The translations under genes were made by a program, and so were the position numbers. Below, piece by piece: positions 10,709-26,930 of a DNA stretch of 26,930 nt. How positions within the stretch are numbered: the stretch's first letter is position 1; the number at the start of each line of letters is the position of its first letter. The DNA is from Thermoproteota archaeon (GTDB lineage: Archaea; Korarchaeota; Korarchaeia; Korarchaeales; Korarchaeaceae), in NCBI GenBank assembly GCA_027491435.1, contig JAOZFG010000043.1, forward strand, positions 1 to 26,930, written 5' to 3'. The notes beneath the pieces are model-generated. The model worked only from the letters and a program-made list of their open reading frames with translations. It searched no databases and was not told where the DNA came from.

Positions 10709-11477
10709 CCCTGGCCACCAGGCTCAGATGGGCGCAGGGAGGGTTGAACCTTTCTAACTTCCTTATATCCCCGTAGACACTTTCCGCCCCCCAACCAGAC
10801 CTTCTAAGCATTTCGGCCAGCTCCGTCGGTGTATAAACTCTGATCTCCGTTTCCAACCTGAGAACCAGGGAAAGGCCGTCCCCCTCATCCCTGTAAAGGT
10901 ACCACTTGGAGTAGAGCTTCGACCATATGGGATCGAACTTCCTCTCCTCCAGGAGCACCAAGTTCCCGAACCTCTCGAAAACCTTGTCGCAGTACCTCCA
11001 GTTGGGGGTTTCCCTGTGAACCGTGTTGGCTATTATCAATATTGAGGTGTCTTTAGCCAAGTTCCTGAGCCTCTTGAAGACCTCCTCGTCGGAGGAACCG
11101 TCGTAGTAGCCTAGGGAGGTGGCCACGATGACGAAGGCGTCGAACTTCTCGTGAATTTCCTCGTCAATCCTCCTGGCGTCTGCCACCGCGAACCTAACCC
11201 TGTCCTCGACCCCGTACCTCTTAGCCTTCTCCCTAGCGTCCGTGATGAAGGGGAGGGAGAAGTCAACCCCCAACACGTCGTAGCCCATCCTGGCCAGGGG
11301 AATTGCGACCCTCCCATTGCCGCTGTAAAGTTCGAGGACCTTCCCGGAGGACAGGCCGTACCTCTTGAGGATTTCAGCAATTCCCTTGGCTATGGCCTCG
11401 CCCTCCGACCACATGGAGTTCATTATCTCCATGTAGATGTCTGCCCTCTCCACGAACAGCTTCTCTATCCAGCTCAA
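10692..11477 (-). CDS. class I SAM-dependent methyltransferase
   Basis: Motif I VLELYSGNGRVA, then GVDFS, ADAR and FDA...TSLGYY. Confidence 0.85.
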   Translation of the reverse strand: MSWIEKLFVERADIYMEIMNSMWSEGEAIAKGIAEILKRYGLSSGKVLELYSGNGRVAIPLARMGYDVLGVDFSLPFITDAREKAKRYGVEDRVRFAVADARRIDEEIHEKFDAFVIVATSLGYYDGSSDEEVFKRLRNLAKDTSILIIANTVHRETPNWRYCDKVFERFGNLVLLEERKFDPIWSKLYSKWYLYRDEGDGLSLVLRLETEIRVYTPTELAEMLRRSGWGAESVYGDIRKLERFNPPCAHLSLVARAIRTG

Positions 11478-18565: not shown

Positions 18566-18698
18566 GGTGCTGTCAACTTAAGGCCTATTTAAACAGGAGC
18601 CGCTGATGTCATCGGAGCTGAAAGGGAGCCTCCAACTCCGTCAGAGAGCGGATTCCTTGCTGGTAGTAGCCTATGATCTGTTCCTTACCTTCGGACCT
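18566..18698 (+). mobile_element. IS6-family relic (left end plus degenerate transposase start)
   Basis: Begins GGTGCTGTCAACTTAAGGC, identical to 26593-26611, and aligns by eye with 26593-26730 over about 130 bp (RERIP...LTFGP versus RERTP...LTFGP). Confidence 0.65.
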
Positions 18699-18753
18699 AA
18701 AAATCCCTAATTTTTACAAATAAGTTGAAGTAAATTATAAATTAGAGGTAGGC

Positions 18754-19320
18754 TTGGCGTTTAACGGAATGAAGATGAGTTCGCTAGACCTGCTGATGTT
18801 GATCTTACTCTCCCTTTTAGCCATTCTAGTGTACGAGTTCGTCAAGGTATGGGCGGAGCGCAACGCGCTCAGATCTAGAATGGAGCAGATAGCAACAGAG
18901 TATGCGAATGAGCTGTTTGAGAGATGGAGGGAGGAGGAAATGGAATACCAAAAGAGGCAGATAGAGGAGGTATTGAGAAGGGAGATGAATCTAAAGGTCA
19001 AGGAGTACTTGAGGCAGAAGGAAGCTGAGATAAGGGAAGATGCTATCAAGAGGCACGAAGCTGTTGTAACAGGAAAGGTGACGGAGCACCTCATCCCATA
19101 CCTGCCGGAGTTCAGGTACAACCCTAAAGACGCCAGGTTCATCGGCTCTCCCGTAGATTTCGTAGTTTTCGACGGGCTAAGTGAAGGCAGCCTAAGGAGG
19201 ATAGTTTTCGTGGAGGTAAAAGCGGGGAAGAGGCCGAGGCTCAACGAGAGGGAGAAGCAGGTAAGGGATATCGTTGAAAAGAGAAAGGTATATTGGGAAA
19301 TGATCCATAAGCGGCTTTGA
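18754..19320 (+). CDS. Holliday junction resolvase-like PD-(D/E)XK endonuclease with N-terminal membrane anchor and coiled coil
   Basis: GKVTEHLIPYLPEFRYNPKDARFIGSPVDFVVFDGL...IVFVEVKAG. The true start is probably the ATG at 18769 or 18775. Confidence 0.85.
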   Translation: MAFNGMKMSSLDLLMLILLSLLAILVYEFVKVWAERNALRSRMEQIATEYANELFERWREEEMEYQKRQIEEVLRREMNLKVKEYLRQKEAEIREDAIKRHEAVVTGKVTEHLIPYLPEFRYNPKDARFIGSPVDFVVFDGLSEGSLRRIVFVEVKAGKRPRLNEREKQVRDIVEKRKVYWEMIHKRL

Positions 19321-19339
19321 GGTGCGGTCAACTTAAGGC
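19321..19339 (+). repeat. solo IS6-like terminal repeat
   Basis: GGTGCGGTCAACTTAAGGC has one mismatch to the copies at 18566 and 26593 and the same orientation. Confidence 0.65.
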
Positions 19340-25888: not shown

Positions 25889-26392
25889 GTGGTGATCATG
25901 GAGAAAGTTAAGAGGAGGTTCTTCATATGGCTCGGGGTCCTGCTGACGGCTTTGCTAATAGGGACTTACCTGGACTCTATGGTGGGAACGTGGTCTCCAA
26001 TTTACCTGCGAGTCCTAGCCGTCTTAGGGATGACCTTCTCCTTCCTTCTGCTTAGAGTATCGGGGAGAACATTGAAGACCTTAGGAGAGCCTGAGGAGTG
26101 GGGATGGACCACAAAGCTCGTTACTGAGGGCCTGTACTCTTGTGTAAGGCACCCTCACCACCTGGGGATCGGGCTATTCGTCACCTTTCTATCTATGCTC
26201 GTAGGCCTGTTCACTACCTTGGTAACAGCCCTACTCATGTGGATCAGCATATACTTGTTTTTGGTGAGGGTGGAGGAGCCTGAAGCCCTTGAGAAATTCG
26301 GGCAGGAGTACCAAAGGTACAGGGAGAGAGTTCCCATGTTGTTAGGGAACCCTATCTGTCTAGTGAGGGAGGTTATTAACGGCTTGAGGTAA
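25889..26392 (+). CDS. isoprenylcysteine carboxylmethyltransferase / PEMT family membrane protein
   Basis: LVTEGLYSCVRHPHHLG and EEPEALEKFGQEYQRYRERVP, with four hydrophobic segments. Confidence 0.88.
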   Translation: MVIMEKVKRRFFIWLGVLLTALLIGTYLDSMVGTWSPIYLRVLAVLGMTFSFLLLRVSGRTLKTLGEPEEWGWTTKLVTEGLYSCVRHPHHLGIGLFVTFLSMLVGLFTTLVTALLMWISIYLFLVRVEEPEALEKFGQEYQRYRERVPMLLGNPICLVREVINGLR

Positions 26393-26583
26393 CTTTAATT
26401 TCAATATTTTTGGTGATTTAATTTTCATGAATTTAATTTGTAAATACAATATAGAGTTTGATGTTGATATATTTTTACGTTAATCTGTGTCCAGAGAGGA
26501 CCCTTATTACAACTGAAAAAAGGACTCTGAGTACGATGGAACCGACGGCTACTATGCTTTCAACCTATGTCCAGAGAGGACCC
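26393..26583 (+). CRISPR. candidate CRISPR remnant: AT-rich leader, one full repeat, one spacer and a half repeat
   Basis: AT-rich 26393-26488; GTCCAGAGAGGACCCTTATTACAACTGAAA at 26489-26518; about 50 nt of unique sequence; GTCCAGAGAGGACCC at 26569-26583, ending at the IS boundary. Only 1.5 repeats are present. Confidence 0.5.
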
Positions 26584-26930
26584 GGTGCTGTCGGTGCTGT
26601 CAACTTAAGGCAAGGCTATGGTTATAAGCAGGGTTGCTGATGTCATATGGAACTGAAAGAGAGTCAATTCAACTCCACCAGAGAGCGGACCCCTGCAGTC
26701 ATAGCCCACTCCCTGCTTACTTTTGGGCCTGCTAGGCGTGTCAGCCAGCTTAGCCTTGCTAGGCGTTAGGGGCCATGAAGGTAAGTAAGGTACAGGTTTA
26801 GGCAGGATGAGCGAGATCATGGCTGTTAAAAGCAAGGGAGTGGCTGTCGTGGACGAGACAGTTGTGAACTTCGCTGTAAGGTTTACTGGGGTGGCGCTGG
26901 ACCCTGAGACAGGCTTTCTAGCTTGAGCTT
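26584..26930 (+). mobile_element. degenerate IS6-family element (transposase pseudogene), running to the window edge
   Basis: Terminal GGTGCTGTCAACTTAAGGC with the first 9 bp tandemly duplicated. Fragmented frames read RERTP..., LALLGVRGHE and AVVDETVV...VALDPETG, resembling the first DDE motif of archaeal IS6 transposases. Confidence 0.7.

Follow-up and report, generated by a model that had tools for sequence, protein, structure and literature searches.

A probable remnant of the trailer end of a CRISPR array, cut inside a repeat by an insertion sequence, in an archaeal genome

Orphan arrays, mini arrays and solitary repeat units on viruses and plasmids carry repeats that match the active arrays of the host, and they are thought to be expressed. 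The locus described here resembles them in having one or two repeats, a single spacer and distant cas genes, whereas its repeat differs from the two active 24-nt types of its genome and its leader side is gone. Damaged and split arrays form another described group. According to the CRISPRidentify paper (PMC7913763), arrays disrupted by an insertion sequence (IS) have been described, and damaged 3'-end repeats are frequent, substitutions being present in 10,425 of 39,378 arrays (27%); IS-split arrays and mutated terminal repeats are common enough for array-finding software to handle them. The present locus likewise has an IS inside the array and a heavily substituted last repeat. In contrast to the disrupted arrays described there, only one side of the IS is assembled here, the rest is missing, and the pieces cannot be merged. 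The third group consists of arrays with a 37-nt repeat, found here in related genomes. The locus shares with them the 37-nt slot, the period of about 80 nt, the GAAGCA... and ...TTGAAAG ends, a co-varying stem and a degenerate terminal repeat. The arrays of the relatives (five genomes, periods of about 72–90 bp) contain 20 to more than 200 repeats, whereas the locus has one spacer and two imperfect repeats, which are 62–74% identical to the nearest family repeat. Unlike the arrays of the relatives, it has neither a leader nor adjoining cas1-cas2-cas4 or cas6 genes, and it lies among housekeeping genes (those for SMC, ScpB, dihydroorotate dehydrogenase and TmcA). The best explanation is that the locus is a dead trailer-end remnant of a CRISPR array on the minus strand, truncated inside a repeat by an IS, and we put the probability of this reading at about 0.78. 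The features are listed in Table 1.

Table 1. Features of the locus, with coordinates in the window
Feature	Position	Strand	Remark
Methyltransferase gene, membrane PEMT/ICMT type	25889..26392	+	PF04191 6.9e-08, PF04140 1.2e-05 (Pfam)
AT-rich intergenic DNA, plus-strand T-runs	26393..26476	.	Trailer-side flank, not CRISPR leader
Copy 1, full-length 37-nt terminal (trailer-end) repeat	26477..26513	-	...AGATTAACGT replacing ...AGATTGAAAG at degenerate 3' end
Sole surviving spacer, 43 nt	26514..26556	-	80-nt period minus 37
Copy 2, 3' 27 of 37 nt	26557..26583	-	Ends GGTTGAAAG; 5' 10 nt replaced by IS-related DNA
9-nt tandem copy of IS terminal-repeat tip, GGTGCTGTC	26584..26592	.	Read from sequence
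IS left 338 nt, to contig end	26593..26930	+	19-nt terminal inverted repeat 26593-26611; frames broken

The window, that is, the whole stretch of DNA analysed, is the entire 26,930-bp contig C12 of a 1.64-Mb genome in 43 contigs. A search for sequencing runs that contain this DNA listed none. The initial annotation had described about 95 bp of very AT-rich sequence followed by a repeat that recurs in part 80 bp further on. Both observations were reproduced. The G+C content is 18.9% at 26393-26487 vs about 53% for the contig, and the exact 16-mer TGTCCAGAGAGGACCC is located at 26488-26503 and at 26568-26583, with a spacing of 80. The direct repeat extends to 22 nt (26482-26503 vs 26562-26583), of which 20 are identical. 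The stretch that is actually repeated is therefore 15–22 nt, and the boundary of the previously proposed 30-nt unit ending ACTGAAA was inferred, not observed. When the window was shuffled, a mean of 0.06 matches was obtained at two mismatches or fewer, and at least two matches appeared in 1 of 100 shuffles. A search of the whole 1.64-Mb genome for exact direct repeats (16 nt or longer, 20–150 nt apart) gave 56 diagonal hits at about 25 loci, most of which are genuine CRISPR arrays, repeats in coding sequence or tRNA genes. According to the shuffles and the rarity of short-range repeats in the genome, the 22-nt pair is not a product of chance. No copy of the 22-mer beyond these two was found in the genome at up to four mismatches. 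Between the two copies, all three plus-strand frames are open, including the one quoted earlier. The two mismatches between the copies both fall at third codon positions in one frame, an observation that is not used as evidence. A reading of the repeat as the start of a gene (ATG/GTG-TCC-AGA-GAG-GAC-CC) was tried and rejected; no such gene start is present elsewhere in the genome. Direct repeats separated by a unique spacer are present at the minimum number, as two copies with a period of 37 + 43 nt. Array finders, which usually require at least three repeats, would miss the locus, as had been anticipated.

The related repeat family was found by searching the translated region in 36 genomes of the same taxonomic family. 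Weak hits at chance level (E 0.15-0.6) were clustered in one 12-kb stretch of a sister-genus genome, G043. This stretch is a CRISPR array, with 188 identical 37-nt repeats in the 16 kb fetched. Its spacers are 35–53 nt long with one outlier of 107 nt, and 21 of the 187 spacers belong to the 43-nt class. On the strand matching the plus strand of the window, the G043 repeat starts with CTTTCAATCT, and five bases upstream of where the direct repeat recurs, at 26557, the window carries CTTTCAACCT. Using a search for periodic CTTTCAAY, related 37-nt arrays were obtained in three sister-genus genomes (G021, G041 and G043) and in two of the same genus (G002 and G019), and less similar long-period arrays were detected in a third genus. 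In the transcribed orientation, the family repeat begins with GAAGCA, forms a stem of 4–5 bp with a loop of 3 or 5 nt, and ends with GATTGAAAG. An exact pattern scan over one genome per species (185,579 species) returned 16 loci. Eight are arrays, all in two records corresponding to G043 and G041, and the other eight are single bacterial hits, a number expected by chance. The 37-nt repeats of the relatives have no match in Rfam, and the family appears to be uncatalogued. A pattern of the 5' half of the family repeat, at up to two mismatches in the 36 genomes, matched the arrays, one site in G049 and the present site, the last by construction since the pattern was built in part from the window copy. 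No second copy lies close to the G049 site, and the DNA around it resembles normal unique sequence, so this match is read as chance. With the pattern reversed as a control, there were no matches.

Both copies can be placed on the minus strand of the family alignment (A4) without gaps. Copy 2 (26583..26557) reads GGGTCCTCTCTGGACATAGGTTGAAAG and corresponds to the last 27 of the 37 repeat positions, and copy 1 (26513..26477) reads GTTGTAATAAGGGTCCTCTCTGGACACAGATTAACGT. The reverse complement of CTTTCAA at 26557-26563 provides the canonical ...TTGAAAG end. Against the G043 repeat, copy 2 has 20 of 27 identical residues in register from the repeat end, and copy 1 has 23 of 37; against the same-genus G019 repeat, copy 1 is identical at 10 of its first 13 nt. 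The raw identity of the same-genus and G021 repeats to the window copies is a weak fit. The window period of 80 (37 + 43) is within the family range. It speaks against the CRISPR reading that there are no more than two copies, one cut and the other degenerate, and that their mutual similarity begins 5 nt inside the proposed 37-nt repeat. No further 37-nt unit is present in the genome, the next best site having 23 of 37 identities, which is background. The initial annotation had placed a 30-nt unit and a 50-nt spacer on the plus strand. The fit to the family instead gives the minus strand, a 37-nt repeat and a 43-nt spacer, and the ACTGAAA previously taken as the repeat end becomes the junction of copy 1 with the spacer.

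On the minus strand, copy 2 contains the stem-loop GUCC-UCUCU-GGAC followed by AUAGGUUGAAAG. Columns 13-16 of the alignment pair with columns 22-25 in 32 of 32 cells. At pair 14-24, the six family repeats have C-G and the two window copies have U-A, which is a compensatory change. The covariation score was reached by none of 500 shuffles, and slid registers pair in only 25-41%. The hairpin of copy 2 is present in the minimum-energy fold and in the centroid fold alike; compared with shuffles, the RNA of the minus strand does not fold more stably (z = +1.22). The same palindrome could be read differently, as a pair of sites for a dimeric regulator (GTCC-N5-GGAC) placed eight helical turns apart and controlling a plus-strand gene that lost its body to the IS. 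Each copy does contain a 13-nt inverted repeat, all three plus-strand frames are open across the junction with ATG/GTG codons at the start of the repeated 16-mer, and AT-rich, promoter-like DNA is located upstream. However, the CRISPR hairpin explains the palindrome equally well, and regulator sites leave unexplained both the CTTTCAA end and the likeness of the copy 1 tail to the family repeats. Moreover, the region is not conserved in relatives, and the open frames have no homologue in the 36 family genomes other than the CRISPR repeats. We regard the regulator reading as highly improbable.

In order to place the pair in the genome, a scan in phase was performed, in which a full copy and a 27-nt copy 72–90 nt downstream were scored at all genome positions on both strands. 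With the G043 repeat, the site ranks first with a score of 43 (next 39, background 37 or less), and with the G041 repeat it scores 41 (next 38). With the trailer-variant repeat of G041, the site is absent from the top scores and there is no signal. In a decoy test, the repeat was permuted 20000 times while the local duplication was kept. The observed score was reached by none of the 20000 decoys of the G043 repeat and by one of the G041 repeat, and by 1262, 710 and 2990 of 20000 in the cases of G002, G019 and G021, respectively. As the search leading to G043 started from this site, the decoy p-value needs correction for the possible repeat types; after a roughly 100-fold correction, it is estimated to be about 1e-3 to 5e-3. 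A covariance model was built from five family repeats with no window sequence. In the window, copy 2 is the first hit (18.6 bits, E 0.005) and copy 1 the sixth (9.9 bits, E 0.75). In the whole genome, copy 2 is the fourth of nine hits at E of 10 or less (E 0.31), and the three comparable or higher hits (27.1, 20.4 and 18.5 bits), all located within long open reading frames, have the appearance of noise. Each copy alone is thus not significant genome-wide; the evidence lies in the combination of pair, register, hairpin and period.

These results bear on the alternative that the pair is a local duplication unrelated to CRISPR, an 80-bp tandem or slippage event later cut by the IS, whose likeness to the family arose by chance. 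The genome holds about 20 other short-range direct repeats that are not CRISPR, equal or better single-copy hits are found inside open reading frames, and the family was itself found starting from this site. In addition, the rest of the second 80-bp unit is absent from the assembly. Against a plain duplication are boundaries that fit in register, a hairpin at the same columns with a compensatory change, and first rank in the scan with 0 and 1 of 20000 decoys, as well as a period in the family range and a terminal repeat decaying at the same end as in G002 and G041. A local duplication is therefore considered unlikely.

The orientation of the remnant follows from the relatives. The flank on the GAAGC side is conserved between G041 and G043 and bears a TATA-like box, and in G019 a TTTATATA box is located about 90 nt upstream of the first GAAGC repeat. 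The trailer-end repeats of G041 and G002 are degenerate at the TTGAAAG end, and they are located at the end opposite to the leader-like flanks. Copy 1 of the window, the left-hand copy, is degenerate at the same TTGAAAG end. According to this shared decay, the left side of the locus is the trailer. The AT-rich DNA is therefore the trailer flank together with the terminator region of the converging methyltransferase gene, and not a leader as the initial annotation had it. On the upstream side of copy 2 on the minus strand, the IS is found and not a leader. A search of this genome with the leaders of G041, G043 and G019 gave no match. AT-richness as a mark of a leader was considered and rejected: 33 stretches of the genome are as AT-rich, and none of the 33 is on contig C4 or C15, where the true arrays are located. 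The AT-rich stretch has no similarity to the rest of the genome or to 35 family genomes.

The plus-strand arrangement of leader, 30-nt repeat, 50-nt spacer and repeat, possibly functional, has the AT-rich stretch upstream in its favour. Another point for it is the likeness of ACTGAAAA to the ATTGAAAG end of the genome's repeat (6 of 8 nt). The evidence largely refutes this arrangement, and its probability is very small. No further copy of the 30/31-mer is present in the genome when up to six mismatches are allowed, and none of its second half when up to one is allowed. The copies remain similar for 7 nt upstream of the proposed unit, the repeat family fits on the opposite strand and with other boundaries, and the true leaders of the genome are not among the AT-rich stretches. 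A likeness of the 30/31-mer to the two repeat types of the genome was rejected; for the best case, 111 of 2000 shuffles were as good, and the match was to the non-transcribed orientation. An exact search for the 30-mer gave 0 and 0 matches in metagenome and viral contigs, with a pattern that included spacer bases and could not match a real array. The 15-mer occurring twice 40–70 nt apart was found in none of the genomes, one per species.

The right-hand end of the locus is IS-related. The terminal inverted repeat GGTGCTGTCAACTTAAGGC has 41 matches in the genome at up to three mismatches. The initial annotation stated that the repeat ends where the IS begins. Copy 2 does abut IS-related DNA, but the terminal repeat itself starts only after an extra tandem copy of its first 9 nt, and among the 41 IS ends listed, a full copy of the 9-nt tip precedes this one only. 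The covariance model of the family aligned this tip copy to the 5' end of the repeat, and a symmetric TTATAA box is present about 30 nt inside the left-end terminal repeat of the IS. The length of the element is about 704 bp, as calculated from 338 + 474 nt minus the 108-nt overlap with the end of contig C16, and the copies within contigs are 693–698 bp. BLAST of the tail against the genome detected many copies, mostly at contig ends. The reading frames are interrupted in every copy examined, and the element is found only in this genome and in G020 among the 21 genus genomes and 43 phylum genomes searched, as are homologues of its protein among the 43. In Rfam, the region gives only a sub-threshold C/D-box hit, inside the IS.

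The element had been named an IS6 element, and profile and homology searches did not confirm the name. It contains a presumed DDE-like motif, which we take to be IS6-like, and it resembles the IS6 family in its length of about 700 bp, its 19-nt GG-initiated inverted repeats, its many copies and, at the two copies compared, the lack of visible target duplications. An 8-bp target duplication is a trait of IS6, and target duplications are often lost after recombination between copies. None was seen by eye at two in-contig copies (C31 and C32). Different from the family, its frames are broken in the examined copies, and the genome has no match to PF13610, the IS240-type DDE profile. Four translated pieces of the IS gave no family in Pfam and NCBIfam at E of 10 or less, and no longer homologue of the IS protein was found in a collection of 5.8 billion proteins. 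Thus, the IS6 label is unconfirmed.

The position of the pair, abutting an IS end and 350 nt from the contig end, and the odd 9-nt duplication of the IS tip at the junction are also what a by-product of IS activity or of assembly might look like, be it through target duplication, through nested insertion or through an artefact of the assembly graph close to the end of the contig. A target duplication, however, would flank the IS and would not sit 80 bp to one side. Neither the 22-mer nor the family repeat is present at the flanks of the other 40 IS ends, and the 58 nt between the copies are not like the IS above shuffles; when they were tried as a decayed IS end, 304 of 1000 and 569 of 1000 shuffles scored as high, and the idea was rejected. 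Such a by-product is scarcely probable.

The genomic context gives further information on the remnant. At five same-genus loci, the gene downstream of the methyltransferase orthologue is AIM24-like; in this genome, the AIM24-like gene is located on contig C16. Therefore, the gene order breaks right after the methyltransferase stop codon. The same-genus methyltransferase orthologues are about 70% identical at the DNA level, and the downstream DNA is unrelated. The methyltransferase protein detected six loci in metagenome contigs, all at 61% identity or less. A 200-nt region around the site gave only short chance hits in the DNA of the 36 family genomes, and recurrent hits around 26522-26552 sit in unrelated contexts. 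No Cas family was detected among the 31 window ORFs scanned, in agreement with the initial annotation. The genome's own arrays, with 24-nt repeats and spacers of about 40 nt, are on contigs C4 and C15. Its two cas1 loci are likewise on other contigs, one on C43 (cas6-csa1-cas1-cas2-cas4, with cas6 at 618-1427) and one on C4 beside the 24-nt array. The cas1, cas2 and cas4 products are 27-46% identical to those encoded beside the 37-nt arrays of G002 and G043, and the cas6 product is 26% identical. These low identities and the lack of cas genes in the window count against the CRISPR reading, as does the absence from the assembly of a matching leader and of further repeats of this type.

The surviving spacer adjoins the degenerate terminal repeat and the AT-rich stretch on the trailer side, and so it is the oldest spacer. 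The initial annotation had proposed an array truncated after its leader-proximal spacer; the truncation within a repeat by an IS most likely holds, and the spacer belongs to the trailer end instead. The spacer has no second copy in the genome. Against 50,697 phage records it gave only AT-rich chance hits, and an exact search with one 24-mer of the spacer found no match in viral contigs; archaeal viruses of this lineage may be missing from these phage and viral sets, in which the suggested search for a protospacer found none, another point against the CRISPR reading.

On the minus strand, the layout would be read as the IS end, copy 2, the 43-nt spacer, the decayed copy 1, then the AT-rich DNA, and finally the methyltransferase gene, which converges on the remnant with its 3' end. 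The ancestor would have been a longer array at this place, with its leader further to the right. The IS presumably landed inside the second-last repeat and left 27 of the 37 nt of copy 2. The leader-side part of the array is absent from the assembly; it may lie beyond the IS in unassembled DNA, or it may have been deleted by recombination between IS copies. The production of guide RNA from the array would have been lost with these events.

The initial annotation had also suggested that the locus could still yield one guide, and the results lend this no support. The leader side is replaced by the IS, the processing end of copy 1 is lost, and the cas genes beside the relatives' arrays have only counterparts of about 30% identity here. 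A repeat 3' end of the ATTGAAAG type gives an 8-nt crRNA tag. Compared with this end, copy 2 ends with GTTGAAAG (7 of 8) and copy 1 with ATTAACGT (4 of 8). A bold reading, which we consider very unlikely, is that transcription from the left end of the IS runs through copy 2, the spacer and copy 1 and gives one matured guide RNA. The intact hairpin of copy 2 and its GUUGAAAG tag would then be used by the resident Cas6 and effector, whose own tag is AUUGAAAG. If this were true, the IS would have converted what was once the oldest spacer of an array, now lost, into a single-guide unit with constitutive expression. In a related bold reading, the tip of the IS would resemble the 5' end of the repeat, and the element would home to such repeats.

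As a dead trailer-end remnant, the locus is an ordinary, known kind of genome scar and involves no new mechanism. A two-copy stump of this kind can be assigned to a family and a strand using the arrays of relatives, where array finders and exact searches fail; the register, the covariation of the hairpin and the decay of the terminal repeat are useful features for the comparison. For the organism, comparison with these arrays suggests that the lineage once had a second type of array, whose 37-nt CRISPR repeats resembled those of the relatives, and that it may have lost this array through IS activity. Such a loss would fit a genome with about 40 IS ends and a broken gene order at this site.

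A solitary 37-mer lies on another contig (C26) of the source genome G000. It is identical at 27 of 37 positions to the CRISPR repeat of G043, a genome of the sister genus, and is the best single match to that repeat in G000. Its score is 20.9 bits under the covariance model built from five repeats of the 37-nt family in relatives. It is intergenic, with converging genes on either side and an AT-rich stretch immediately before it, and a partner copy is absent. The 37-mer may represent another relic, besides the one in the window, of the 37-nt CRISPR repeat family.

The top match of the covariance model in G000 is located elsewhere, on C23 (27.1 bits, E 0.002). It falls within a minus-strand ORF of 143 aa that adjoins a small AbrB-like ORF, and the hairpin of the 37-nt repeat family is absent from the match. 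We take this match as noise; it illustrates that the E-values of the model are rough.

Two other repeat pairs were found in G000. Directly after a three-repeat array on C15, the sequence GCTTACTTGATAAAATC followed by CTTTCTAAA occurs in two copies with a spacing of 68 nt. These copies may represent a third repeat type, or else repeats that have become degenerate. On C40, a 24-nt exact direct repeat, with copies 62 nt apart, is positioned where a gene on the minus strand has its 3' end, and an AT-rich stretch lies about 300 nt away. The geometry of the C40 pair is CRISPR-like, yet the pair falls within a coding region or at its end.

Features of G000, of the window and of the G041 array
Feature	Sequence	Coordinates	Pfam match
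Three-repeat array, second 24-nt repeat type	G000 C15	574-722	
Two-copy repeat (L028)	G000 C15	752-840	
24-nt direct repeat	G000 C40	34169-34254	
Solitary 37-mer	G000 C26 (L093:133-169)	10732-10768	
Top covariance-model match	G000 C23	14194-14224	
Two oldest repeats, trailer end of array	G041 C1 (L056)	1350-1537 of L056	
Two IS terminal repeats (at 18566 and 19321)	window	18566-19339	
Endonuclease gene	window	18754-19320	PF10107, 2e-57
Tip copy of IS terminal repeat	window	26584-26592	

In the array of G041, also of the sister genus, the two oldest repeats are a variant of the G021 type (stem GCCGC/GCGGC), whereas the remaining repeats have the G043-type stem. This difference suggests that the repeat type was replaced within one single array.

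Inside the window, an endonuclease gene related to archaeal Holliday junction resolvase is bracketed by two IS terminal repeats that share one orientation; the IS sequence after the first of these repeats amounts to only about 90 nt. At the window end, a 9-nt tandem copy of the terminal-repeat tip stands immediately before the IS, and among the 41 IS ends listed the full copy is unique to this end. The tip copy could have been left by an insertion into the tip of an older IS copy. In the covariance model it aligns loosely with the 5' end of the repeat.

The genome of G000 as a whole carries one IS, about 700 bp in length, with about 40 ends, most of them at contig ends. All reading frames examined are broken, and among the 21 genomes of the genus and 43 of the phylum searched, the IS is shared with G020 only. 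These results suggest that the element spread in a recent burst and then decayed, or that it is mobilised in trans.
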